IMG/VR virus record: IMGVR_UViG_3300001589_007665
Location: 14,910 to 78,909 of that record
Reading direction: 5' to 3' (one strand)
From: a virus
DNA: 64,000 bases
Of this stretch, positions 14,801 to 52,051 are shown in pieces (position 1 is the stretch's first letter; every line of letters starts with the position of its first letter). The notes under the pieces are model-generated. The model was not told the origin of the DNA, did no database searches, and saw only the letters and a program-made list of their open reading frames with translations. Made by a program: the position numbers and the translations under genes.

Positions 14801-17800
14801 AGCTAATCCGCAAATAGCATATCTTAATCCTAAAAATTTCTATTTCCCTAAAGCTATTGTTACATCTCCAGGATTAACTCTTAATACATCCAGTAGTCAA
14901 TATAATCAAGATCCTAATAGGACAGTAATAACCAATGTATCTACTGAAGATCTAATTATTTATTTAAAAACAACAAATAAAAAATATTGGGACTATGAAT
15001 TTATAGGCTATTTATTATATTATGTTAGTCCTGCTTTTAGAAATCAATTCTACGGTAATTTTGCTGTCTCTAGTAATGAATCAGCTACGCATGTTGAAAT
15101 AGCGCCAAAAGCTGCACATCCGTTTTTTGCAGCAATCCCCATAGAATTAAAAAATTATGTATATGGACCTTGGGCTAATAATGTTTATGTTGATTATTTA
15201 AGAGATCCTCAAGCTGTTTTTCCAGATGGAGTAACGGTTAAAACAGGAGATGGATTTCCGCCAACATGCACAACAGACTCCTCAACGGTCAATGACGAAC
15301 AAGCAAAAAATATTATAGATAATTTAATTGGTCCCATGAACATAGAAGTCGATGAAGAATTAGTTCCTTGGAATTTCGGTGGTGCTGGTTTTATGGATAA
15401 AGTAGCTAATCTTAAAGCATATTCAAAACTAAACTATCAGAGTATAATAGAAACTGCTCAAATAAAAATGCCCGGAATCCCGATCTTTGATATAGGTTCA
15501 AGTTTTGACACTACTACTTTTAATAATGTAGCAATTAATTTTGGTAGCTATATTAGTAATAAAACATATACATATAACGACGTTAAGTTCGGCAATAATA
15601 CTTTAGATAATTATGATGGTTTTGATTTGCCCAATTCTTTAAGCACATTATATTCTTTTAACCCACCTAGTGCTCCTAAGACCGAAACATATAACTATAC
15701 TACAATTGCTCTTAAGACACCATTAGCTAGTCCTAGTACAGTTATTAGTAATATACAGGTTAATGTGGGGAACGGAGCTATTGAAACCACATACTCTTTA
15801 AGAACTTATACCAAGAAATTATCTCTATTTAATAAAACAGAAGTAGACAGGGCGGCAAAACAAGGAAGAGAAGGAATATCAAGAAATAAACAAATAGCCA
15901 GCATATCACAACAAAATAATAACAATTTAATACAACAGTTTAAAACTAGAGAAGATCAGAGAATAAATAGTGCTAATAAGAATTTTGATAGTATAGGCTT
16001 TAGTAGTAAATTATTTGGATGGAGTCCTACAACAGTTTTGGTGGGTCAGGCTTCTCCATATTTAAAGTCTCTAAACACTTTTCCTACTTTTATACCTCCT
16101 AGTTCTGAATATGTATTTCCTGATGAATTTGGATCTTTAGGCTCAGATAATAAAACATATACTTTGCCTACGAGTAAATCTATTGGTGATGACGATGACT
16201 CTAGGTCTGCTGCTTTAATTCAAGGAGAAAGTACCCATGTTCCTACTTTATTAAATAGCAGTAAGTTTAGAGTTGATGTTGGTATGTATGACGTTAAAGA
16301 AGTTAGGACACAATTAAGTTCTGATTATGGTTTGCAATCTGCTATGAGTTTAGACGGTTTATTATCTCCTGTTTCTTTTTATCCAACATTTAAAAGAAGT
16401 ACTTTTAGTTATAGCAAATATGATCTGAACAGCTGTCCATTTTGTAAAGGTACCAAAAAAATAAAATCAGAATATAAATTCTATATTAGCGGTAGTGAGA
16501 AAAAAATTGTAGATTTTGTATATTGTGACTATTGTGCTAGAAGAGATGAAAATCTTAAGTACAAGTTAACAGCAGGTGCTAGTAGTGCTTCTTCAGAAGT
16601 ATTACCTCCATATGTTATTACAAATGAAACAAGCCAATCTGTTCTAGAATTATTTAAAGGACTAAGTGGTGGAGGCAGTTCTTCCAGTACTGCTGGGGAT
16701 AAACCCGAAATTAATCTTGCTACTTTAAATCCAATCTTAGTCGGTGATGGAGATTTTCGTAATACAAATACCCAAAACTATGTTGGTAAGCATCCAGATG
16801 GCAAACATGAAGAATTGTTTTTTGGAAATACTCCTAGACCTTTTAAGGATAGATCTAGACATGGTATAGAAATAGTGGCTAGAGGAGCTGTTGTTCAAAA
16901 TAGTTTAGAAATTAGCAGTTCTAAATATGAATATCAATATGATTCAGACTTTAATCCAGATTATCATAGCAGAGATTTGGAATTAAATAAAAGTGTTAAG
17001 GCAGCAGGGGCAATACCAACATTAAAAGATTATCAGATGAATCAAAGGTTCTTAGGATTAAGAGGACCACTAGTGATGCATGCTTGGGGATACGACAAAG
17101 AAGGATATCCTGTTCCTAACGCTGCTGATGAGCCAAGACTGATTGATCAATTAGGAAGACCTAAAAGATTTAAATTAAAAATAAAACAAGGCTACCCTAA
17201 AAAGATAGCATATTCTGAATTAGCTAATGGATCAGCATATGCAAGCGGTAATGGTATTATAACAAAAGGTGAAGAGTCAACACCTCCAGAAGATGAGACA
17301 GAAGTACAGCATTATGTTTATGAAAACGACTTGGAAAATAATGGAGGTTTCCTAGATGCCAGCATGACAGGAGAAGATAGGATGACTGGTTTTCAGGGAG
17401 ATATTATTAGCAAGACACAATCTTTTGATAATGGTAAATGGTCAGAAAAGACTAAATTAAAAGAATTTTACTTAAATTTTGGAGAACGTCCTGATTTATG
17501 GCCAGTTGGACCAATTGATCTGCGATGGGATGAAGATAGACATGTTTGGAGTGTTCCTGTAGACGTTACTGTATACAAGATGGTTTATGTGACTTTAGAA
17601 GAGAATATGATAAAAGCAGCAGATTATTTTGATGAGACATTACCCGCTAGAGGATTTTTAGATGAATTAGAATATAGACAAGAACCGTTGCCTAATAATG
17701 CTAGGAGATTAGTATATGTAAGAGATAAAAGTGGTTATACCGCACCTAGAGGAGCAAAATTATTATGCAGATATGATACAGGCTCAGGATATTACGAGCC

Positions 17801-35488: not shown

Positions 35489-37140
35489 TGTTGTGTTTTT
35501 AATCTAGCATATTGAATAAAATCGTCGTCAAACTGTATATTATTGTCTATAGCAAATTTTAATTCATTATTGTTTTTTACATAAGTGTTGATTTGGTCTA
35601 TAATAGTATTAATGTCTATGGCTTTAGTCTGTAAACCATTCATCTGAAAGCCGTTGTCTATATCATTTAAAAAGTGTAACATTCTGCTAGAAGAAATTTT
35701 TTCTATATCTCCCAACCCTTTATGACACATTAAAATCATTTGATCTATATTTTCGGATATATCAATATCTCCAACACGGTCTACTTTTTGTAGTTCTGGC
35801 ACTTTAGACCAATCAGACTTATAATTCTGTTGAGACAAACTGTCTAAATATGTTTCCCATTTTTTAGCTATAATATCCCAGTCATAAAATTTTTCTGTTA
35901 ATTCTCTTATCTGTTTTCTTTTTTTATCTACCATAGACTGAGGCAGATTTAATGTCTTATTGATCGTACTAATTAAATCATCATTATCTGGATAGACTCG
36001 TACGGCTCTTGTTTCTAATTCTTTAAATGGAGACTGAACTTTTATAGGATATGCTTTAAGCTTTTTTATAACATCACACATAGCACTATAGTTTACTGTC
36101 GCTACCGGAACACCGCATGCTGCTGCTTCTACTTGTGGCATGCCGAAACCTTCGCAGATAGCATATTGCACATAAAGATTAAATGTGTTATAAATAGTAG
36201 ATAGTTGTTCTGTACTTATTCCAGAACTAACACTAGGAAATACTTTCGATCTTTTTAGACATTTTGTACACAATATATTAGGACCAGAAAATACCTGAGA
36301 AGAAACATGATCACAATTTTTGCAAACATAAGTAAATAGTACTTTATTGGCAAGCCGATTTTCTTTTAATACTTCTGGTAAATCCCATCCTGCATCGGGC
36401 CAACTAGTATGTAAATAAAGATATAAATTTTTACCTATAGAGGCATTACTTTTTTCGCATTGATCTAAAAGTTTTCTAAATGCACCACATAATCTAGGTA
36501 TAAGTTTTCTTTTTTGGTTTCTCATTACAGAACCAATAATAATACTGTCTTTATCTATGCCTAAAGACTGTTTGCATTCTTGCATATTTTTAATTCTAAA
36601 AGTCTTTAAGTCTACTCCAGGGGATGCTGTGTCTATATAATTAACATTATCACTAGACTGTTCTTTTAAAACATTGGCTCCCCAATCAGAATAAGTAAAA
36701 ACTGCGTCAGCAGATAGATATGTATCCATCCACATCTGCTGTTGTGGGGCAGAGTCTATCGTGGGCATAAGTATCCAATGAAAATATGGCCTACAGGGAG
36801 AAAGCTCTTGATAAGCACTCATCCAATAGTCTCTTATGTCTATAACAACATCTGGCTTAAAATCTACAACAACTTTGTCAAATCTCCATCGACCAAAAGC
36901 ATTGTCTGGTCGAGACGAATACTCTTTATGTCTTGAGTCTTGATCATTAACAGAATTAGCATATAGTTTCCATGGGATATCTTTATCTCTAGGGTCATTA
37001 ACAGTTGCATAACTAGCAAATTCTGCTATTTCATATTTTTGTGTAGCATATAACCTATTTAAAATTTCTCTGGTATAGGTGCCATATCCTGAATTTAGGA
37101 AACTGGCTTCTGAACACATTAGTATTTTAAGTTTGCTCAT
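35485..37140 (-). CDS. GT4 family glycosyltransferase with Cys-rich insertion
   Basis: SGYG, PGVDLKTF, RNQKRK, YAICEGFGMPQVEAAACGVPV; CKNC...CTKC insertion. Confidence 0.85.
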   Translation of the reverse strand: MSKLKILMCSEASFLNSGYGTYTREILNRLYATQKYEIAEFASYATVNDPRDKDIPWKLYANSVNDQDSRHKEYSSRPDNAFGRWRFDKVVVDFKPDVVIDIRDYWMSAYQELSPCRPYFHWILMPTIDSAPQQQMWMDTYLSADAVFTYSDWGANVLKEQSSDNVNYIDTASPGVDLKTFRIKNMQECKQSLGIDKDSIIIGSVMRNQKRKLIPRLCGAFRKLLDQCEKSNASIGKNLYLYLHTSWPDAGWDLPEVLKENRLANKVLFTYVCKNCDHVSSQVFSGPNILCTKCLKRSKVFPSVSSGISTEQLSTIYNTFNLYVQYAICEGFGMPQVEAAACGVPVATVNYSAMCDVIKKLKAYPIKVQSPFKELETRAVRVYPDNDDLISTINKTLNLPQSMVDKKRKQIRELTEKFYDWDIIAKKWETYLDSLSQQNYKSDWSKVPELQKVDRVGDIDISENIDQMILMCHKGLGDIEKISSSRMLHFLNDIDNGFQMNGLQTKAIDINTIIDQINTYVKNNNELKFAIDNNIQFDDDFIQYARLKTQQ

Positions 37141-37144
37141 ATAT

Positions 37145-37170
37145 AAAAACAGGGGTCTTTGCAGACCCCC
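37145..37170 (-). terminator. Rho-independent terminator after ssb
   Basis: Minus strand GGGGTCT-GCAA-AGACCCC followed by TGTTTTT. Confidence 0.8.
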
Positions 37171-37187
37171 TTAAAAGATAAAAATAA

Positions 37188-37583
37188 TTAAAAAGCCACA
37201 ACTTCTTCTTTATCGGAAGAACCAGTTTGAGCATTTTGTTCTTTCTTATATCTAGAAAGCTTGGTCAGCTTAGAAAAGTTGTTCACCCTAACCTTAAAGC
37301 TATTGTGCTTAACTCCATCCTTTTCCCATGAATCATTTCGCAAAGATCCTTCAACCATTACTAAATCTCCTTTGTTGAAAGACTCTGCAATAATTTCAGC
37401 ACCGGTATCCCATGCTTCACAGTTAATAAACGAAGTGACCTTGTCTCTTTCGCCATTAGCCTTAGTATATTCCCTAGAAGTAGCAACAGTAAAATTAACA
37501 ACTGTTGTATCTTTACCTCCAGTACTAACTTTTCTATGTTCTGGGTCTCTAGCTAGATTTCCTCTTAAAATTACAAGATTCAT
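37188..37583 (-). CDS. ssb: Single-stranded DNA-binding protein
   Basis: MNLVILRGNLARDPE...FINCEAW...KGDLVMVEGSLR; AAGGAG RBS supports start at 37583. Confidence 0.95.
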   Translation of the reverse strand: MNLVILRGNLARDPEHRKVSTGGKDTTVVNFTVATSREYTKANGERDKVTSFINCEAWDTGAEIIAESFNKGDLVMVEGSLRNDSWEKDGVKHNSFKVRVNNFSKLTKLSRYKKEQNAQTGSSDKEEVVAF

Positions 37584-37627
37584 TATCATCTCCTTAAAAA
37601 GTAAATTATCCAAAACCAACACAATGT

Positions 37628-37655
37628 ATTATAAAACCTAATCGGATATAGTCAA
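37628..37655 (-). promoter_or_regulatory. Sigma70-type promoter for ssb
   Basis: TTGACT-N16-TATAAT on minus strand. Confidence 0.65.
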
Positions 37656-39277
37656 GCCTTAGGAATAAAACATTTTTCTACGATTAGACTATCTTTATTT
37701 TTTGACTTCTTACCAGTAAAAATTAATACATTTCCTTCAAACACATGAGTCCTATATGACGCCCATGTTTCTGGAAAAAGAATAATAGAATCTAATAAAC
37801 CATACTGGTCTTCTCCTGTGACGAAAGCCATTTCTGCACCAGGGTTTTTACCGTTTTTTGTTTTGGTAACATTGACGCCAACAACTTCTGCCGCTAATAT
37901 AATATCATTAGTTTTATATGTTTTTTTAAAATCTTTGCAGTTGGTATTGGTCATTTCTATTTTGTAAGAATCTAATTTTGAGCATGTGATGGCTGCTCCT
38001 AATAGAGAGTTCTCTGAATCTGACAACCATTCTATTTTATCTGTTAGTGAATAAGGAGGATTATCTATAGAGGCTATTAAATTATTAATAATTTCTTTTC
38101 TATTGATGTTAACTCTTTTAGTTAGTAGCTCTGTGAGTATGGTCTTTAAATTATTTTCTTCATTAGCTATTGCTTCTTGACATTTTTCCATTTCTTTTTT
38201 TGTCAAGGTATTGAATACTTCGTACTCAAACAACATTTTAGTCCTAGATATTTTAAAATAATCTAATGCACCGCATGATATTAAGGCTTTAGTTGCGGTA
38301 CTGTTAATCTTACACAAAACTTTATTAAGCATATCGTACCAATTTAATTGTTTTATATTTATCTTGTCTTTTTCTAAGATTTCTAATATCTTTTTATATA
38401 CAGAGTTGCCTAAGCCTTTTATGTCTGTTAGTCCAAAAAATATTTTTCTGTCTTTTATAGAAAACAGTTCATTAAGATTTCTAATATCTGGAGTTTGTAT
38501 ATTGATATCCATCTCGTTGGCATTTCTGACCAATTCTTTAATCTCTTGTTGTGGATCTATTTTGTCTTTAGCGAATTTCAGATATGAAGCAAAGAAGACT
38601 CTTGGAAAATGAGCTTTGGCGTATGCTGAAAGATATGCGTTCATAGCATAACTTACTGCATGGGATTTATTAAAACTATATCTTTGACTTTTTTCAATCC
38701 ATCCAAATATTTCTTCTGCTGTGTCTTTATCTACCTCGTTGACCCTTTTGGCTCCTTGTAAGAAAGACTTCTTAACTTCTGCCATTAAATCAGCCTTTTT
38801 CTTACCGATAGCCTTTCTAAGAACATCGGCTTCTTGAAGATCAAATCCAGACACTACTCTAGATATTTCCATAGCCTGTTCTTGATAAATCATTTCACCA
38901 TAGGTTGTTTCCAATACTCTTTGCAGAATGGGGTGATAATAGTCTACAGATTCTTCTCCGTTTTTCTTATCAATATAGTGATTAGATACTGTTTTACCAT
39001 CTCTCACGGCCTCTAAACATCCAGGTCTTAAAATACTAATTAGGGCTGAAAGCTGTTCTATGTTTCCTGGCTTTAGTCTTTTAGCCATGCTTTGTCCTAG
39101 TCTAGACTCTAACTGAAAACAACCTTTTGTGTTTCCTGAAGAAATCAAGTCCCAGGTTTTAGAACATTCCAAATTAATTTTTTCTAATTTTGGCTCAAAT
39201 TGTATTCTAGGAAATTCTTCATTATTCCCTGTAATCTCAAATTTACAACCACAATCAAAAGTATAATAATCAGACAT
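37652..39277 (-). CDS. dnaE: DNA polymerase III alpha, C-terminal half (fingers, HhH, OB)
   Basis: GCFQLES, RPG, ETTYGEMIYQEQAM, ADVLRKAIGKK, YSFNKSHAVSY, FGLTDIKGLG, MAFVTGED. Confidence 0.92.
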   Translation of the reverse strand: MSDYYTFDCGCKFEITGNNEEFPRIQFEPKLEKINLECSKTWDLISSGNTKGCFQLESRLGQSMAKRLKPGNIEQLSALISILRPGCLEAVRDGKTVSNHYIDKKNGEESVDYYHPILQRVLETTYGEMIYQEQAMEISRVVSGFDLQEADVLRKAIGKKKADLMAEVKKSFLQGAKRVNEVDKDTAEEIFGWIEKSQRYSFNKSHAVSYAMNAYLSAYAKAHFPRVFFASYLKFAKDKIDPQQEIKELVRNANEMDINIQTPDIRNLNELFSIKDRKIFFGLTDIKGLGNSVYKKILEILEKDKINIKQLNWYDMLNKVLCKINSTATKALISCGALDYFKISRTKMLFEYEVFNTLTKKEMEKCQEAIANEENNLKTILTELLTKRVNINRKEIINNLIASIDNPPYSLTDKIEWLSDSENSLLGAAITCSKLDSYKIEMTNTNCKDFKKTYKTNDIILAAEVVGVNVTKTKNGKNPGAEMAFVTGEDQYGLLDSIILFPETWASYRTHVFEGNVLIFTGKKSKNKDSLIVEKCFIPKA

Positions 39278-39962
39278 TATTAAAGGCGTTTCTAAACTTA
39301 ATCTTTGGTGACAAACTTCTAAATAGCTTCATAAATCTAATCAGTATTTCTGCAGTATCTTGTACATCCTTTAACGCATCATGGGCATTTTCTTTAGATA
39401 GTCCCATATAGTCTCTAAGATTATCAAGAGTATAATTTTTTAATTCGTTATTATTCTCAAACCAATAAAAAATAACATTCATGATATCTAAAACATCTCT
39501 AGGATAAAATATGTCAGTTTTGTTTTCCTTGTTGACATTTTTATATTTTTGACTTAACCTATTAATAATTGGTAGGTCAAATCTATTAATGTTGTAACCA
39601 GCAGCAATAGGCGCACTAAAGCAGTTCTTTTTAACAGATCTTGTATGGTACATTTGTAAATAACTTACAAACATTTTCCAAGCCTGTTCTTGCTTTTGAT
39701 GCTTTTTCCAAGACTTGAGAACTTCCCCTTTGGTTGTTCCTTGGACTTTTGCATGAAAATCTAAAACATCAGAATCATCATAAGTATATTTAGGGTTATC
39801 TTGTAGTGCTTCAGGCTTTAAGCAAATATTAAATTCTGAATCTGGCACCACCTCCAATTTAATTGGATCAATAATAACGGCTGCAATCTGGACAGGACTA
39901 CAAACTTCTGGATTGCAACCGTCTGTTTCTAAATCAAAAACACAAATTTTTTGACTGTTAAT
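39270..39962 (-). CDS. DEDDh 3'-5' exonuclease (DnaQ/epsilon-like); probable ATT start
   Basis: ExoI DLETDG, ExoII YNINRFD, ExoIII HDALKD; GGAGGT RBS 5 nt before ATT at 39962. Confidence 0.85.
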   Translation of the reverse strand: MNSQKICVFDLETDGCNPEVCSPVQIAAVIIDPIKLEVVPDSEFNICLKPEALQDNPKYTYDDSDVLDFHAKVQGTTKGEVLKSWKKHQKQEQAWKMFVSYLQMYHTRSVKKNCFSAPIAAGYNINRFDLPIINRLSQKYKNVNKENKTDIFYPRDVLDIMNVIFYWFENNNELKNYTLDNLRDYMGLSKENAHDALKDVQDTAEILIRFMKLFRSLSPKIKFRNAFNNV

Positions 39963-40140
39963 CTGACACCTCCACCTTCTGGTCTGGACGAATAAAATGT
40001 TTGTTGTTAGGATCTGCTGCCACATAGCAGTTGATACTTTTACAACAAGTAACCTTAACTGAATTTACTTTGACATATTCTGTGTTGTTGAGTTTAAAAG
40101 ATTTACCAACAGCAACTTCTTGAAATATTTTTTGCATCAT
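39958..40140 (-). CDS. Small Cys-containing hypothetical protein inside the polymerase cluster
   Basis: 60 aa, TAATG-coupled to dnaE-N; TCCKSINC. Confidence 0.6.
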   Translation of the reverse strand: MMQKIFQEVAVGKSFKLNNTEYVKVNSVKVTCCKSINCYVAADPNNKHFIRPDQKVEVSD

Positions 40141-42011
40141 TATTCTCCGTATGATAGTGTATCTGATATTGACATAACCTTATCTAACATAGCCACACCA
40201 AGGATATCAAACTTGATAATACCCAAAGATTCTAGATCTTGCATTTCCATACCAGCTATAGTGGTTTTGTTTTTTGTATCATAAATCATTGGACACATCG
40301 TATCTAAGTTGTGACTACTAATTACTACACCGGCAGCGTGTTTTGATTGGTTGGATTTGGTACCCTCTAATCTAATAGCCTGTTCGAACCTTTTGGCAAG
40401 GGGGCCTTTTAATTTATTTCCCTGTTTAGATATTGAGCACCATTCTTTAAGTCTATCAGTATTATTTTCTAAAGCCCATCTAATTATAGAAGCTTCCCCA
40501 TAATCGTCTTTCATTTCTTGTAATTCATCTGCAATTTTTGCTTCATCGGGTATGCATTTTGTTATCTGGTTCATTTCATCAAAACTTATGTTGCCATAGA
40601 CACGCAAGACTTCTTTTAGTGCGCCTCTTCCTTTCATGGTATTAAAAGTGATCATTTGAGAAACTTTATTTTCTCCATATCTTCCTCTAATATATGATAT
40701 GATGTCTTCTCTTTTATTAATCGGGACATCTACATCTATATCTGGCATAGAGACCCTACCTTCTGTATTCCTACCAGAGTTATAAAATCTTTCAAAAATT
40801 AGGCCATATTTCATTGGATCAATTGAGGTGATTCCAATAAGATAAGATACCAAACAGCCAGCAGCAGAACCTCTTCCTGGCCCTGGCAACCACCCTTGAG
40901 ACCGCACACGATCGACAATATCGGCAACAATTAAAAAATAGCTAGATAAGTCAGCTCCTTGTAAAACAGACAGCTCTTGCTTGATTCTTTCGGTATATTC
41001 ATGATGTTTTTCTTTAGGTACATTATTGGCTATTTTGTCCCTCCAGCCGTTACGACATAACTGCCTTAAATATTCATCAGGATTTTGTTCGTTAGGACAT
41101 TTAAAAGGAGGAAGTAATGGTCTGTTTAATATATCGTATTCTTCACACATACTATCTATTAGTTGTGTATTTTCTATTTCTTCTTCTGTATGTATTTCTG
41201 CCATTTCTTCAGGAGAAAGAATATAGTATTTGTCAGACTTAAAAAAGCAACTAAAGGGAACATCTTGTCCATCCAACATCTTTTTATTAATATCTGTTAA
41301 TGTCGTTTTTATATTGTTGCACAAGAGGATTCTTTGATCCGTGGCATCTTCTTGCTCAGAATAATGAGCATCAGGAGTGCATATAACTTTTGTTTTTGTT
41401 ATTGCTGCTAAAGCTCTAATTTTTTCGCTTAATTCTTTTTGCTTTGGCATATATTCTTGATCCATTAATTGTGTTTCAAGAAAAAAGTTTTCCTTGCCAA
41501 ATATGTCCTTCATTTGATCTACAAAATTTAAGCAGAGTTTTTGATAATTATCTGGATTGTTTGCGATAAGATCTGGGATATATGAACCCATATGTCCGCA
41601 GAAGCTTATTAAATTTTCCCCCTTTACCACTTCTTGTAATTTATCTATAGAAAGTCTTGGTTTACGATAATAATTATTAGGATTATTGGATTCAGAAACT
41701 ATGCGAATCAAGTTTTTCCAACCTTCAAAGTTCTTAGCCAAAACTAAGAAATGAGTTAGCTTACTATTCTCTGGTGTCTTTATATTAGAATCATCAAAGG
41801 ACAAATATAATTCACATCCTAAAATAGGTTTTATATTATTAGATTTAAGAGTTTGATGCATTTGAACAGCACCAGATATCGAACCGTGATCAGTAATTGC
41901 ACAACTTTTAACTCCAATATTTTTACACCTTCTAGCTATTTGTTTAGGCTTAGATAGGCCGTCCAGCAAAGAATAGTGGCTATGAACATGTAAAGGTATA
42001 TAATTTTTCAT
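40140..42011 (-). CDS. dnaE: DNA polymerase III alpha, N-terminal half (PHP + palm/thumb)
   Basis: HVHSHYSLLDG, AITDHG, GPGRGSAAGCLVSY, FERF, MPDIDVD, HAAGVVI, KFDILG. Confidence 0.95.
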   Translation of the reverse strand: MKNYIPLHVHSHYSLLDGLSKPKQIARRCKNIGVKSCAITDHGSISGAVQMHQTLKSNNIKPILGCELYLSFDDSNIKTPENSKLTHFLVLAKNFEGWKNLIRIVSESNNPNNYYRKPRLSIDKLQEVVKGENLISFCGHMGSYIPDLIANNPDNYQKLCLNFVDQMKDIFGKENFFLETQLMDQEYMPKQKELSEKIRALAAITKTKVICTPDAHYSEQEDATDQRILLCNNIKTTLTDINKKMLDGQDVPFSCFFKSDKYYILSPEEMAEIHTEEEIENTQLIDSMCEEYDILNRPLLPPFKCPNEQNPDEYLRQLCRNGWRDKIANNVPKEKHHEYTERIKQELSVLQGADLSSYFLIVADIVDRVRSQGWLPGPGRGSAAGCLVSYLIGITSIDPMKYGLIFERFYNSGRNTEGRVSMPDIDVDVPINKREDIISYIRGRYGENKVSQMITFNTMKGRGALKEVLRVYGNISFDEMNQITKCIPDEAKIADELQEMKDDYGEASIIRWALENNTDRLKEWCSISKQGNKLKGPLAKRFEQAIRLEGTKSNQSKHAAGVVISSHNLDTMCPMIYDTKNKTTIAGMEMQDLESLGIIKFDILGVAMLDKVMSISDTLSYGE

Positions 42012-43057
42012 TCAATACTTCCTGGAGCTTGGTAATGACCTACATTATACCCTGGCACCGTGTACTCGTCAACTACATTTTCTAAACCTTTTAATTGTAT
42101 GTCATGAGCAACTTGTTCACACATGGTCATATTATATCCAGGATTACAAACTTGTCCTTCTCTATATTCTAGTATCGGCAATATATCCTTATTGTCTTGA
42201 AAAGAATTTTTGCCATAATGACATAATTTTCTACATTTCCATGTTTTAGACAGTTTGGGTCTTTTTGTGTTTTTAATATGATAAAATTTTTGCCTTAATA
42301 AATCTTCAGTCTTTTGCATATCTGACTTATTAAAAGTCATACTAAAAGGACCTCCGTCATTAATAAAGTATATCGTTATGATACAAGTTTCTATATGTGG
42401 ATATAGTTTCTGTACAGCATAGAAATATATCATTAGTTGTGGATCAACCTCTAATTTTTCTTGAGTTTTTTCCTCACCCGTTGCCCAATTTAATCTTCTG
42501 CCTGTTTTCCAATCGATAATTTCTAAGGTATTTTCTGCTGGTTGAGTAATTAAATCTATTGTGCCTTTAATTGACAGATTTCCTTTAAGCTTTTCTCCGC
42601 TAGGCAATTCGTACTCGTACTCTGCCCAAGGCTTATTAATAGTTATATCAAATCTTTGTTCGGGGTAAAGAATATTTCTATTTCTTGGATCAAACATACC
42701 ACCAGCATATTCTATTGCCTTGTATGTCCATTTTTTACAATCTTTAAAATCTTTATCTGACCAATCATGATGACTAAAGCCTGTAGTGTAATACTCATAG
42801 ACTCTTTCTATTATATCGTCTAGATCATAATTATATACATTAATTTCTCCAAGAATATCATCTTTGAATGTAGATTCCCCTTTCTGTACAGTATATTTTA
42901 CAAAAGCTAAAATTTCTAAATTTTTATGTACTATAGTTCCTTTGTCTGCTTTTTTATTGGAGGGAGATCTGTAGCCCATAACATAATCAAAAAGATATTG
43001 TTGTTCACACATATTATGTGTGTTATAGCTGGAACTACGAAAGTATGTAATTATTAT
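42008..43057 (-). CDS. PD-(D/E)XK nuclease (RecB/AddB/Cas4-like); probable ATA start
   Basis: GTIVH, KGTIDLI, IIDWKTG, QLMIY, CRKLCHY; in-frame N-terminal extension IIITYFRSSSYNTHN. Confidence 0.85.
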   Translation of the reverse strand: MIITYFRSSSYNTHNMCEQQYLFDYVMGYRSPSNKKADKGTIVHKNLEILAFVKYTVQKGESTFKDDILGEINVYNYDLDDIIERVYEYYTTGFSHHDWSDKDFKDCKKWTYKAIEYAGGMFDPRNRNILYPEQRFDITINKPWAEYEYELPSGEKLKGNLSIKGTIDLITQPAENTLEIIDWKTGRRLNWATGEEKTQEKLEVDPQLMIYFYAVQKLYPHIETCIITIYFINDGGPFSMTFNKSDMQKTEDLLRQKFYHIKNTKRPKLSKTWKCRKLCHYGKNSFQDNKDILPILEYREGQVCNPGYNMTMCEQVAHDIQLKGLENVVDEYTVPGYNVGHYQAPGSIE

Positions 43058-43794
43058 GATATCACCTCGTTTAAGATTGTTTCTATTTCTATGGATTGAT
43101 TATATATGTCTATGTCGTTATTATTAACAATATAGTCAAACTTTTCCCAATCGTAATTCTCTTTATCCAATGCTGTTTCGCTAATATGAGTAGAGTCATA
43201 AGTATTTCTATTAAGTCTAACTACCACGCCGTTATTTTGTTGAATACAATCTACCTCATTAGGGAATCTACAATCAGTAATTAAAGATAGTTTACTTTTA
43301 TCTCTTTTAATTTTGGCAATAATTGCTGCAGTCCAGACATCAGATTTCATTTTTCTAAACATGTCAGTACCGACATACTGCATAACTTCTCTAGCTGTCA
43401 TGGCACTATTAGTACCTGGCCAAAAACAGTTTACTAATTCATTTTTTGAATTGTCTGAACCATAACAATGTTCATGTGTTAATCCTAGTATATTCATACA
43501 TACATCTTTTTTTAATGGATCAGCAAAACTATATACTTTTATAAAAGGATCTATAGTGGAGCAGACCTGTCTCATAATATAATCATTAGAATCATGAATA
43601 TGAGATGGGTCAAATGGACCACTGTAGTCTTTATTTCCTAAAAGATCGCTAACATGTATTAATCCATCATCATTAATTTTTACTTTTTTAGCAATCCTAA
43701 GATTGATCATAAAAGTAGAATATATAAAATTAACACAAGTATTCTTTCCTGACTGCTTTCTTCCTGAAAAAGCAATAATATTTTTGTTAGACAT
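43054..43794 (-). CDS. Deoxynucleoside monophosphate kinase (T4 gp1-like)
   Basis: FSGRKQSGKNT, SFADPLK, TAREVMQYVGTD, ITDCRFPNE. Confidence 0.85.
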   Translation of the reverse strand: MSNKNIIAFSGRKQSGKNTCVNFIYSTFMINLRIAKKVKINDDGLIHVSDLLGNKDYSGPFDPSHIHDSNDYIMRQVCSTIDPFIKVYSFADPLKKDVCMNILGLTHEHCYGSDNSKNELVNCFWPGTNSAMTAREVMQYVGTDMFRKMKSDVWTAAIIAKIKRDKSKLSLITDCRFPNEVDCIQQNNGVVVRLNRNTYDSTHISETALDKENYDWEKFDYIVNNNDIDIYNQSIEIETILNEVIS

Positions 43795-44938
43795 ACTCCA
43801 ACCTTGGTTTAATAAATTCCTGTATTTGTTCCACTGTCATTGTCGCAATATCCTGATAATCAATCTGGACATCTACAATATTATAAGTCCTTTCGCATTT
43901 CTTGTAAACATTCTCTGCCGCCTTCTTACCAGCATCATCGTTATCCATAATTGTATATATCGTCATAGCTCCTGACGTATCTAAAATCATTTTTTGAATA
44001 TCCGCTAAAGAAGATCCAAAGATAGCAACAGAATTATGTATTCCTGCTTCTTCTAGTCTCCATACATTTCCGGGGCTTTCTACTAAAATTACAGATCTAG
44101 ATTGTTTGATATGTTCCTGAGCAAACCAATAATTATAAAGATGATTTTGTGTTTTAAATCCATAATTATGTCTCCATTTACAATAAAGATATAGTGACTC
44201 TTGTTTTGGACAGTCTTTTTCTAAATGATAATGATTACAAACATCGCACTTTTCTGTAGTAGCACGGCCAGTACATCCTACCATATATTTTCTATTATTA
44301 TCATATACAGGAACTACTGCTCTACCAGACATTGGCTTACCACTCTTTATACAATCTCCAACATCATATTTAGTAAGAATATTTTCGCTAAAACCTCTAG
44401 ACATAAAATATTTAGAAGGTATATCTAATGAGTTCATAATAGATGTTCTTGATATTTTTTTGGAGTCATCAGGTTTTGTATTACTTATATATTTGACAGC
44501 ATTGACAAAGAGACTTTTTTCTTTATCTTTATTGTTGATTTTTATATTACTTAACTTATCCCCTAGAAATTGTTCAGCAAATGTTATCGTCTCTTTAAAG
44601 GTGCATATATTTTCACTATTATTAGGCCAGTCAAACCTTCTCTTTGATAGACATCCTCTAATAAAACCTAATATCGAAGATTTAAATGTTTCTTCACACC
44701 CATGTGTTCTGCATTTCCAGTTGCCTCTATAAGAATCTCCTGTGTGATATAGATTAAATGCAGAATCATTATCTCCTCCATGTATTGGGCAACTACAAAT
44801 TACCATTTTATCTGATATTCTATAGTCTTCGACGTCTAATACATCTAATAGCTCTTCTATATTATCACAAAGCCTATCTGACATCACCTTTAGTTGGGCT
44901 TGATCAGGAAAATTCGATTGCTTGGTCTTCGTTATCAT
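43787..44938 (-). CDS. dnaG: DNA primase (Zn finger + TOPRIM)
   Basis: CPIH...CRTHGC; GRAVVPV..VGCTGR; LVESPGN; MDNDDAG. Confidence 0.85.
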   Translation of the reverse strand: MITKTKQSNFPDQAQLKVMSDRLCDNIEELLDVLDVEDYRISDKMVICSCPIHGGDNDSAFNLYHTGDSYRGNWKCRTHGCEETFKSSILGFIRGCLSKRRFDWPNNSENICTFKETITFAEQFLGDKLSNIKINNKDKEKSLFVNAVKYISNTKPDDSKKISRTSIMNSLDIPSKYFMSRGFSENILTKYDVGDCIKSGKPMSGRAVVPVYDNNRKYMVGCTGRATTEKCDVCNHYHLEKDCPKQESLYLYCKWRHNYGFKTQNHLYNYWFAQEHIKQSRSVILVESPGNVWRLEEAGIHNSVAIFGSSLADIQKMILDTSGAMTIYTIMDNDDAGKKAAENVYKKCERTYNIVDVQIDYQDIATMTVEQIQEFIKPRLEYV

Positions 44939-46364
44939 TGATTATAAACCCATCGTTATCAGGAGTGTTACCATTAGTTAATTCTAGTCTAGTTTGACCT
45001 TCTGTGATTTTTGCACACCAACCCTTCATATTGCAGTTGATGTAATCGTTGTCATCCAATCCTCCACCATGTCGACTAATAACAGGCAACAACTTTCTAT
45101 TGCCAGCATTTGGTCCGTCTTCTGCTATTTCTTCATCTGTCTTTCTTTTAAATATTGTAAAGTTGCTACAAAGCCATATAATTCTATCGGAACCACTAGC
45201 TGTATCAGTACTTTCTTTGGTTATGCCGTCTCTGTTAAGCTGTACAAATGCTACCACAGGAATACCATATTTGCAAGCAAAATTATGTAAAGAAGTCATC
45301 ATAAAGCCTAGGACCTGATATTCTTTAAGGTCTTGAGACATACCTTGACTATCCATTAGTTTAAGATAGTCATAGAATACAACACAGTCATTAGCTGTAC
45401 CGTCTGATTTTAAACCTACTTCTTTGACAATCCATCTTCGCATAACAGCTAGCTGTTCTTCAAAAGGTTTACCAGCAATACTTTTATGATATAGTGGGAT
45501 ATTTGCAATGTTCTTAGCAGAGTCTTTAATTTTCTTTTTCATATTAGGAGAATCAGCAAATTTACCAGATTCAATTTTATTAATTTCTACTTCAGTAGAC
45601 ATGGCTAATATTCTATGGATATGATCTTCTTTCGTCATTTCAGTATCCATATTAAGAACTGGTATTTTTAATTCGTTTGCTATATAAAAACCCATGTTGT
45701 CAGATAAAAGGGTTTTACCAGTTTTCGGTCTTGCAGCAATAACATTGATTGTATTTCTTCTTAATCCTCCGCCAATAGACCTGTCGTATACAGGAAAGCC
45801 TGTAGAGATACCTATTTGATCTACTGGATTTGTTTCTAGATAATCCACATAATCTTCTATAGAAGAACCCATGGTCGTTGGAGCAGTTTCGGAATCTGTT
45901 AATTTAGAAGAAAAGTCAAATACCGCATCTTCTGCAATACCTAATATAGCAGCTATAGATTCATTACCATTAATGTCTAATATTTTATTTTGTGTGTTTT
46001 TTAATTCTGAATGTAAGTCTCTAGCAATCTGTAGTTTTTTAATTTTGGCAGCAAATTTTCTAGCATTATTACCGTCTACAGGAAAGTCTTTAATTGCTTT
46101 TATATGCTGAGATTCTTGTTTAGTATTTAATAAGTTTGAAAGACCTAGCTCTTGAGCAACAGAGAATACAGATGCTATATCAATATGAACACAGGTTTCT
46201 TGTTCAGATATATGCTTTAAGCACTGGAACAGATATTGGTTACTGTCTATGGTGAAGGTCTGTTCATCAATTAAATCTGCAATGTCCAAGAAGGCTTTAT
46301 CACCACCTTGCATTATTGAACTCAAAACTGCTCTTTCGGCAGCGGGATCACACAATATCATCAA
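44904..46364 (-). CDS. dnaB: Replicative DNA helicase
   Basis: AERAVL, GISTGF, AARPKTGKT, YDYLKLM, QLNR. Confidence 0.92.
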   Translation of the reverse strand: MMILCDPAAERAVLSSIMQGGDKAFLDIADLIDEQTFTIDSNQYLFQCLKHISEQETCVHIDIASVFSVAQELGLSNLLNTKQESQHIKAIKDFPVDGNNARKFAAKIKKLQIARDLHSELKNTQNKILDINGNESIAAILGIAEDAVFDFSSKLTDSETAPTTMGSSIEDYVDYLETNPVDQIGISTGFPVYDRSIGGGLRRNTINVIAARPKTGKTLLSDNMGFYIANELKIPVLNMDTEMTKEDHIHRILAMSTEVEINKIESGKFADSPNMKKKIKDSAKNIANIPLYHKSIAGKPFEEQLAVMRRWIVKEVGLKSDGTANDCVVFYDYLKLMDSQGMSQDLKEYQVLGFMMTSLHNFACKYGIPVVAFVQLNRDGITKESTDTASGSDRIIWLCSNFTIFKRKTDEEIAEDGPNAGNRKLLPVISRHGGGLDDNDYINCNMKGWCAKITEGQTRLELTNGNTPDNDGFIINDNEDQAIEFS

Positions 46365-50790: not shown

Positions 50791-51369
50791 TTATATAAAC
50801 TTGCTAATATATTTTTCCCATATGTCTTTGGACTCTACATCTATAGTAATCACCTCTTGGTACCAAGGCAAGTATTTTGGAGAAAATTTTGGCTTAATCG
50901 GTTGTGAAAGTAGCGTCATATTAGCTTCTTCAGGTGTTTTATTAGCTTTCTTAGTATTGCATTTTCTACAAGCAGTTACTATATTTGTCCAACTGGTGCA
51001 TACTTTATTGTCTTTAAATTTAGACTTAGGCACAATATGATCATATGTTAGCTGACTTCTTAACAAATGTTTTCCACAATATTGGCAACTGTTATTGTCT
51101 CTGGTAAATAAGTTCTTACGAGATAACTTAACATTCATTCTAGAGGATTTAAAATATCTTGTAGCCCTAGCTACCGCAGGAACAGGTATTAGTCTATTAT
51201 TTGAGCAGATAATATTATCATCATATTGTTCTAATATCTGAATACCATAATTAAAATCATGCAAATATTTAATCTGCCATACGATAGCTTTTTTCCAATG
51301 AATGATACACATTGGAGTAAAGTCACAATTAAGTACTAAACATTTTCTATTATGGTTGTTCATTATCAA
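50791..51369 (-). CDS. HNH endonuclease (McrA-like)
   Basis: RDNNSCQYCG...TYDHIVPKS...WTNIVTACRKCNTKKAN. Confidence 0.9.
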   Translation of the reverse strand: MIMNNHNRKCLVLNCDFTPMCIIHWKKAIVWQIKYLHDFNYGIQILEQYDDNIICSNNRLIPVPAVARATRYFKSSRMNVKLSRKNLFTRDNNSCQYCGKHLLRSQLTYDHIVPKSKFKDNKVCTSWTNIVTACRKCNTKKANKTPEEANMTLLSQPIKPKFSPKYLPWYQEVITIDVESKDIWEKYISKFI

Positions 51370-52051
51370 GTCTACGGACTATATCCCCTATAATTGGATT
51401 TCTCACAATATCGGAAGTTTCTAGTCTACAAGATCCGACACTATTGATATCATCTAGCCTATTAATTAATTCTAAAAAACCACCCTGTTGTTGTCTTTGT
51501 AGATCCGACTGAGCGATATCTCCAGTAAGGACCATTTTACTGTTCATGCCAATACGTGTTAAAAGCATTTTCAATTGATCATACGAAGCATTCTGACATT
51601 CGTCAGCCACAATAAAAGAATTATGGAAACTTCTGCCCCTCATTAAACCTAAAGGTACAACTTCAATTTTTCTACCTACTTTTAATTTAGTATAACTCTG
51701 CATTTGTAAGAAATAATTAATTTCATCAAATAAAGGCAGCAAATATGGGTGTAATTTTTCTTCTGCTGTACCGGGTAAATATCCTAGTTTTTCTCCTGCT
51801 TCTACAACAGGTCTAGTGATTACAATTTTTTCTACCTTTAAATCTAAAAGATATTCTAGGGCCATGCCTATAGCAATATGTGTTTTGCCACTACCAGGAA
51901 CACCTTGACAAAATGTTACAGTATTTTCTGCTACTTCTCTGATATATTCTTTTTGATTTATTGTTCTAGGTTTTAGTCTATTTTTAAAACCAATAACATG
52001 TTCATCAGGAGTTAATTTATCAAGAGTTTTTTTGGGTTTTCTTTTTCTCAA
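51350..52051 (-). CDS. phoH: PhoH-family ATPase
   Basis: GVPGSGKT, ITRPVVEAGEKLGYLPG, MRGRSF, DECQN, LTRIG, GDIAQSD; TTG start with GAGGT RBS. Confidence 0.95.
   Translation of the reverse strand: MRKRKPKKTLDKLTPDEHVIGFKNRLKPRTINQKEYIREVAENTVTFCQGVPGSGKTHIAIGMALEYLLDLKVEKIVITRPVVEAGEKLGYLPGTAEEKLHPYLLPLFDEINYFLQMQSYTKLKVGRKIEVVPLGLMRGRSFHNSFIVADECQNASYDQLKMLLTRIGMNSKMVLTGDIAQSDLQRQQQGGFLELINRLDDINSVGSCRLETSDIVRNPIIGDIVRRLDNEQP

Follow-up and report, generated by a model that had tools for sequence, protein, structure and literature searches.

Can a DNA polymerase of the C family be divided between two separate polypeptides? C-family polymerases are the main bacterial replicases and are known only as single chains or as chains ligated by inteins. 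The question is raised by IMGVR_UViG_3300001589_007665, a 78.9-kb IMG/VR virus record of an uncultured marine phage that is about 55% complete, from which a stretch of 64,000 nucleotides (positions 14,910 to 78,909 of the record; hereafter the window) was analysed. On the minus strand of the window, the alpha subunit of DNA polymerase III (Pol III), DnaE, is encoded in two open reading frames (ORFs), called here the N-half (40140-42011; 623 amino acid residues, aa) and the C-half (37652-39277; 541 aa). Between them lie a 60-aa ORF (39958-40140) and the gene for a DEDDh 3'-5' exonuclease (39270-39962; 230 aa if an ATT start is used). An earlier note on this DNA had described four overlapping genes, and all four ORFs were found. 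The best explanation, to which I give a probability of roughly 80%, is that the replicative polymerase of this phage is a DnaE-type Pol III alpha consisting of two polypeptides which would assemble non-covalently.

Do the two ORFs really represent one DnaE? The N-half matches the Pfam families PHP (4.6e-35) and DNA_pol3_alpha (1.6e-73) and comprises the PHP, palm, and thumb domains, while the C-half matches DNA_pol3_finger (1.1e-44) and HHH_6 (1.8e-12) and comprises the fingers, the helix-hairpin-helix (HhH) domain associated with beta-clamp binding, and the oligonucleotide-binding (OB) fold. On each profile the two ORFs complement one another, and about 10-20 positions at the junction are left without a match. 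The N-half and the C-half cover positions 41-611 and 622-1077 of PHROG 405 (profile length 1190), 5-565 and 583-1052 of NCBIfam PRK05673 (length 1146), and 7-625 and 645-956 of Taq DnaE, respectively. Pfam, PHROG 405, PRK05673, and the Taq alignment thus agree with the note that Pol III alpha is split over two ORFs, and the alignment to E. coli DnaE, which it had suggested as a check, is likewise complementary (6-466 and 587-1055). In summary, the PHP domain, the palm with three Asp residues, the fingers, the HhH domain, and the OB fold of a DnaE-type enzyme are all present, but not in one polypeptide. The C-half has no tau-binding C-terminal domain. Its AlphaFold2 (AF2) model has a predicted local distance difference test score (pLDDT) of 89.2 and matches DnaE structures in Foldseek at E 1e-22. 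Since naturally fused relatives exist at 40-50% identity (L041, P0010, P0041, and P0078), the halves belong to one enzyme.

All three catalytic Asp residues are in the N-half, namely D424 and D426 in PDIDVD and D602 in KFD, and both motifs align to those of Taq DnaE. The fingers motifs FQLE, YQEQ, LRKAxGKK, and FNKSH are in the C-half. These catalytic and fingers motifs are intact and invariant. The KFDILG sequence occupies residues 600-605 of the N-half, while GCFQLES occupies residues 52-58 of the C-half. The break therefore falls between the two motifs, as the note had placed it, although the N-half runs on for 18 residues after KFDILG rather than for about 15. In the E. coli DnaE structure, the palm extends to about residue 560 and the fingers start from residue 561. 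Thus, the cut is at the palm/fingers border, and it would sit in a surface linker between the end of the palm and the start of the fingers.

The four genes overlap stop to start. The N-half stop and the 60-aa ORF start share one nucleotide (TAATG), the 60-aa ORF stop and the exonuclease start also share one (ATTAA, if the exonuclease begins at the ATT at 39962-39960), and the exonuclease stop and the C-half start overlap by eight (ATGTCTGA). With the ATT start granted, all three overlaps given in the note were confirmed from the sequence. The 864 nucleotides between the DnaE halves are coding throughout, leaving zero non-coding space. The overlapping stops and starts probably couple translation, and hence the parts are probably made together.

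Are the halves rejoined after translation? A split intein would do so, as in cyanobacterial DnaE or the marine 'fractured genes', and marine metagenomes do contain DnaE genes in two parts that carry split inteins and have another gene between them (PMC2677866). The family does have inteins at other places: of the 142 split N-half representatives considered below, about 17 carry insertions of 120-790 aa, and a Pfam intein was recognised in P0161. At the junction, however, only the 18 residues of the N-half tail and the approximately 22 residues of a leader at the start of the C-half are unmatched, which is far below the need of a HINT domain. The tail does not have the conserved initial Cys/Ser, and the leader does not have the His-Asn followed by Cys/Ser/Thr. 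The note had seen no intein signatures here, and a Pfam scan of both halves gave the same answer, with no intein family at E 0.01 or better. Moreover, the intervening genes encode a DEDDh exonuclease and a microprotein instead of a homing endonuclease, and the cyanobacterial site falls within the C-half, about 200 residues beyond the present cut (NCBIfam PRK09532 and PRK07373). I regard ligation by a split intein as highly improbable.

The insertions within the N-half were seen in P0012, P0014, P0016-18, P0024, P0028, P0037, P0038, P0061, P0064, P0065, P0085, P0127, P0132, and P0136. Insertions in the same size range were also seen in P0008 and P0161 (in the fingers region or C-half) and in L040 and L066, and P0161 is the only one of all these with a Pfam intein domain. 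Inteins seem to invade this DnaE family often, yet none seems to have entered at the palm/fingers cut.

Could one polypeptide be restored at the RNA level instead? A group I or II intron containing the ORFs might be removed, or the gap might be bypassed by recoding. Phage polymerase genes often hold introns, and dnaE is annotated in pieces with non-coding gaps, at other sites, in the Bacillus phages vB_BceM_WH1 and Jayan. In contrast, no Rfam family matches at E 1 or better over positions 37000-42600 of the window, and there is no non-coding space for an intron between the halves. The exonuclease gene has a ratio of nonsynonymous to synonymous substitution rates (dN/dS) of 0.017 and diverges in step with the halves, and the frames of the four genes differ among the relatives. 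RNA-level removal or bypass is therefore about as improbable as a split intein. With no intein, no Rfam match, no non-coding space, and too little unmatched sequence, both protein-level and RNA-level splicing are excluded as far as can be judged at the sequence level. As for the Bacillus phages, the dnaE genes of Jayan (L068, 3483-6890) and vB_BceM_WH1 (L069, 3411-7609) are in two to three pieces separated by short gaps or a small ORF, and these are probably introns.

Is the split conserved, or is this a broken gene? In 32 IMG/VR loci with an N-half identity of 58-94%, the same order of PD-(D/E)XK nuclease, N-half, small ORF, exonuclease, C-half, and single-stranded DNA-binding protein (SSB) genes was found, and the order of N-half, then exonuclease and C-half, is kept in 24 further split loci down to 37% identity. 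I also performed an exhaustive search with the N-half against 1.84 billion cluster representatives (50% identity) and examined the best 150 (38-65% identity): 142 of them end 0-60 residues beyond the N-half match, while six are fused forms and one ends in an unrelated tail. Relatives of the size of the C-half fall into 3402 clusters (90% identity) at E 1e-20 or better, some of them on contigs of up to 240 kb, and among the best 120 of these clusters all are stand-alone except one with an intein. The dN/dS values against the related locus L001 are 0.034 for the N-half and 0.024 for the C-half, beside the 0.017 of the exonuclease and 0.24 for the 60-aa ORF. The unsplit relatives at 40-50% identity might suggest that dnaE is decaying or wrongly assembled here, in a phage depending on the host polymerase. 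Nevertheless, more than 55 contigs, which are independent and come from many samples, share this break with the 142 representatives, both halves are under strong purifying selection, and the catalytic motifs are all intact, so that a broken gene is scarcely credible. The break point and gene order, which the note had proposed to compare among related phage contigs, are kept in these split loci, and misassembly or decay, which it had named as a possible objection, is rejected by the conservation and the dN/dS values. One homologue of the N-half, P0113 (762 aa), has a C-terminal extension of 160 residues that is unrelated to DnaE, contains GGQTGADIAG, and replaces the short tail.

Does the phage lineage have another replicative polymerase? 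I examined three relatives with a completeness of 92-100% (137-157 kb), one of which has terminal repeats. Neither PolA nor PolB (family A or B) was found in any of them; the only DnaE palm of each lies in a frame of about 640 aa, and each has a single RNase_T gene. No beta-clamp gene was found in the record of the window or in four relatives. No cultured relative closer than 33% (N-half) or 29% (exonuclease) was found by tblastn in 50,697 phage records, among which the only DNA-level match was Chryseobacterium phage MA9V-3, where dnaE is contiguous.

Non-covalent assembly is suggested because the split is real, intein-free, and under purifying selection, and because the split DnaE is the sole polymerase of the near-complete relatives. 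The note had come to the same idea, and with no splicing device, a conserved split, purifying selection, and a sole polymerase, it appears to be the only reading left. In the proposed enzyme, the N-half would supply the PHP domain, the palm with the three catalytic Asp residues, and the thumb, while the C-half would supply the fingers with the nucleotide-binding motifs, the HhH domain binding DNA and the clamp, and the OB fold. The two chains would bind to each other. The DEDDh exonuclease, whose gene always lies immediately before that of the C-half, would act as a separate proofreading subunit, and the C-half leader of 22 residues with three Cys would help to dock the C-half. The 60-aa protein, with its SH3-like fold, would be a lineage-specific accessory and not a part of the core. 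Several points weigh against this proposal. The complex of the halves is a prediction from sequence, and the record of the window is itself only about 55% complete, so that the statement on the only polymerase rests on the relatives. The metal ligands of the PHP domain appear to be retained in the alignment to Taq DnaE, so that proofreading by a separate exonuclease, though plausible, is not needed a priori. The leader is modelled with only moderate confidence (pLDDT 68-76 in AF2) and is missing from the split L061 clade.

What is the leader? The leader region (39164-39277, minus strand) encodes residues 1 to about 38 of the C-half, where about 22 residues have no counterpart in contiguous DnaE before the family alignment resumes. 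Eight leader-bearing split forms were aligned at the junction with six leaderless forms, namely two of the split L061 clade and the fused L041, P0010, P0041, and P0078. Cys9 and Cys11 of a CGC motif and Cys38 are invariant in all eight leader-bearing forms and in none of the six leaderless ones, which do not have the first two Cys residues and have Asp at the third position. Asp is also found at the Cys38-equivalent site of Taq DnaE. In the AF2 single-chain model of the C-half, the leader is predicted as a beta-hairpin. A fourth conserved Cys or His was not found in either half. It is a reasonable guess that the Cys residues may form a metal site or a disulfide that stabilises a docking hairpin. 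The extra DCGC segment had been pointed out in the note as a possible part of the interface. An interface role fits, since the leader is conserved in most split forms and absent from the fused relatives. Its absence from the split L061 clade means that the leader is not required for the split state.

The ORF between the N-half and the exonuclease gene had been described as Cys-rich. The encoded protein has three Cys in 60 residues, of which two are invariant, and the predicted fold is an SH3-like barrel rather than a Cys-rich metal-binding module; the description overstated the Cys content. F6, F15, C32, and C33 are invariant in an alignment of 20 sequences. The AF2 model (pLDDT 93.5, predicted template modelling score 0.73) is a six-strand beta-barrel with the Cys-Cys pair between strands 3 and 4. 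Comparison with known structures gives only weak, generic similarity (Z of at most 5.2; Foldseek E no better than 0.025), the best matches being EF-P/eIF5A domain I, the SH3-like domain of L2, FeoA, KOW, and Tudor. The protein is predicted to be a generic SH3-like (KOW/Tudor-like) barrel, with no function implied by the fold. It has no Pfam, PHROG, or NCBIfam match and no Atlas name, and searches for longer proteins found no fused form of it, which is weak evidence.

Is the microprotein a part of the enzyme? The note had proposed a four-subunit Pol III core. In such an obligate complex, the 60-aa protein might bridge the halves, for example through a metal site shared between its Cys-Cys pair and the CGC leader. 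The invariant pair lies in a loop between two strands of a confidently predicted fold, the microprotein is probably translationally coupled to the N-half, and the leader offers only three invariant Cys residues, with no fourth ligand found in either half. The distribution of the ORF tells otherwise. It is found only in the clade of the window (N-half identity of 64% or more), while an unrelated acidic 93-aa ORF follows the N-half in the L047 clade and a 78-aa ORF follows it in the L061 clade. In the distant split lineages L065 and L040, 2.7-3 kb of extra genes including a gene of the uracil-DNA glycosylase (UDG) family come after the N-half. The three-Cys leader occurs without this microprotein in the L047 clade and L065, which weakens the idea of an inter-chain Zn site formed by the Cys-Cys pair and CGC. 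The dN/dS of the microprotein is about ten times that of the enzyme parts, and the lack of a fused form weakly points in the same direction. An obligate four-subunit core is therefore unlikely. The 60-aa ORF is clade-specific and replaced elsewhere by unrelated ORFs; it is not a general part of the split enzyme. From the sequence comparison, the conserved set is the N-half, the exonuclease, and the C-half, with the 60-aa ORF as a clade-specific addition. The gap between the N-half and the exonuclease gene, which appears to accept cargo, extends over 7554-10221 in L065 and 8529-11316 in L040 and holds a UDG-superfamily protein and others.

The DEDDh exonuclease seen between the halves in the note is well supported by Pfam RNase_T (4.8e-10; 40.7 bits against a cut-off of 24), by PHROG 192 'DNA polymerase exonuclease subunit' (9e-23), and by the motifs FDLETDG (Exo I), NRFD (Exo II), and HDALKD (Exo III, Hx4D), which together are those of a DEDDh enzyme. 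The catalytic residues are D10, E12, D129, H194, and D199 in the numbering from the ATT start. Where does translation of this gene start? The sole canonical in-frame start is an ATG at 40025, which would give 251 aa. In most relatives, the exonuclease starts with ATG-ATT-AAT, overlapping the stop of the small ORF. In the window and in L001, L002, and L005, that ATG is replaced by CAG or AAG (CAG in the window), and a strong Shine-Dalgarno sequence, GGAGGTG, lies 5 nucleotides before the ATT. In L005, none of ATG, GTG, and TTG occurs in the stretch from the preceding stop to the codon of the catalytic Asp, so the exonuclease probably begins at the ATT (AUU) or by coupled re-initiation, which is the simplest reading. 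A frameshift fusion of the microprotein and the exonuclease, requiring a +1 shift in the window, was also considered and was rejected because in the relatives an ATG or TTG provides an independent start and the overlaps differ.

Does the exonuclease belong with the polymerase? The distance from its stop codon to the C-half start is -20 to +7 nucleotides in every split locus, and it is the single RNase_T (DEDDh) gene in each complete relative. It is plausible that the separate exonuclease acts as the proofreading subunit, as suggested by its being the sole RNase_T gene and the constant neighbour of the C-half. Fused forms of the exonuclease were not found in the searches for longer proteins, which is weak evidence. 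In the fused L041, the exonuclease gene comes after the SSB gene, while it comes before dnaE in the fused L066.

When did the split arise? In the N-half trees (a FastTree tree of 151 rows and an IQ-TREE tree of 38 rows), two fused clades are nested among the split forms, and the starred branches force at least three changes. A single clade of all split forms is rejected by the approximately unbiased test (delta lnL 93.7, p 0.0105). In the C-half tree, one fused clade groups with the split L061 clade (99), in agreement with the N-half trees, while the other fused clade is placed differently with weak support. No viral locus came from a locus search seeded with the fused P0010. Parsimony favours a split that is old and was reversed by fusion at least twice. 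Retention would also fit the leaderless Asp38 state, which is common to canonical DnaE, and the outgroup branch is long, so that this direction of change is tentative. A wider scenario can be drawn only tentatively, and I consider it doubtful as a whole: the split would be the old and normal state in a large radiation of aquatic phages, the N-half, the C-half, and the DEDDh proofreader would form an obligate heteromer, the three Cys residues would act as a metal or disulfide clasp onto the partner chain, and re-fusion would have occurred at least twice. In such a natural and evolvable two-piece polymerase of the C family, catalysis by the palm and selection of nucleotides by the fingers would be tasks of different proteins.

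The surroundings of the locus are those of a replication module. The gene of a PD-(D/E)XK nuclease (42008-43012; Pfam PDDEXK_1, 6.7e-15) adjoins the N-half upstream, its end overlapping the N-half start by 4 nucleotides, and it is the upstream neighbour in all related loci. The SSB gene (37188-37622; Pfam SSB, 1.4e-25), which is conserved downstream of the C-half, is the last gene of the run. Directly 3' of it, the terminator scan found a strong terminator-like hairpin at 37151-37170 (an 8-bp stem with five GC pairs and a T-run), which marks the end of the polymerase operon. The PD-(D/E)XK nuclease, N-half, microprotein, exonuclease, C-half, and SSB genes and the terminator would constitute one operon. 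Further upstream, a dNMP kinase (43054-43794), a Toprim primase (43787-44938), and a DnaB-type helicase (44904-46364) are encoded; from the helicase to the SSB gene and the terminator, all these features are on the minus strand, and the replication genes form one unbroken run. Elsewhere in the replication/nucleotide module, a free-standing HNH endonuclease gene (50791-51369, minus strand) adjoins phoH (51350-52051).

If the halves assemble as proposed, the palm and the fingers can sit on separate proteins with the proofreading gene wedged between their genes, and an active site can be built across a protein-protein interface. This would also show a cut position that a C-family enzyme tolerates. 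An abundant group of aquatic phages with genomes of about 120-240 kb could use the split enzyme as its standard replicase. There is a consequence for annotation, as both halves receive the name 'DNA polymerase III subunit alpha' from pipelines, which may take them for fragments. A full-text literature search found no description of an intein-free split DnaE, only of the intein type.

How does this locus compare with known systems? Contiguous DnaE (Taq 2HPI, 3E0D, and 4IQJ; E. coli 2HNH and 5FKU; M. tuberculosis 7PU7; the fused L041, P0010, P0041, and P0078) has the same domain order, motifs, and C-half fold. The difference is that there are two polypeptides here, cut at the palm/fingers border, with an exonuclease gene within the interrupted gene, that most split forms have the 22-residue leader with three Cys, and that the tau-binding C-terminal domain is missing. 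The PolC of Firmicutes is also a C-family polymerase with a DEDDh exonuclease within its coding sequence. There, the exonuclease is an in-frame domain inside the PHP domain of one polypeptide, whereas in the window it has a gene of its own, placed at the palm/fingers border, and sequence similarity to PolC is weak.

The cyanobacterial split DnaE (dnaE-n and dnaE-c) and the 'fractured' dnaE are likewise encoded in two genes, and the parts of the latter are adjacent with a gene between them. In those systems, split inteins ligate the parts, and the intervening gene encodes a homing endonuclease (Dassa et al. 2009, PMC2677866). In the window, there is no intein, an exonuclease and a microprotein are encoded in between, and the cut precedes the cyanobacterial site by about 200 residues; the HINT blocks, the same integration point, and the intervening homing endonuclease of such genes are all lacking.

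Functionally, the nearest precedents are intein-free splits, where two ORFs take the place of a gene that relatives have in one piece, and new sequence has been added at the cut. This pattern is seen here, as the fused relatives have no leader. In Aeromonas phage Aeh1, the split NrdA-a/NrdA-b is active only with the tails at its junction (Crona et al. 2011, PMC3045599). The split gp43A and gp43B (PolB) of Aeromonas phage 25 co-purify and are active, and the split is also found in phage 44RR, according to Petrov et al. 2010 as cited in PMC2988022. As in these cases, an essential enzyme that relatives make in one piece is divided between two ORFs and would reassemble non-covalently, and the NrdA tails are paralleled by the leader. 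With the precedent of Aeh1 NrdA, the split DnaE could be a tractable system for how split enzymes reassemble. The NrdA and gp43 splits are limited to a small number of phages, where they go together with homing-endonuclease or UTS insertions. The present split, known from genes only, concerns a C-family polymerase, extends over thousands of clusters, and has a proofreading-type nuclease gene in the gap.

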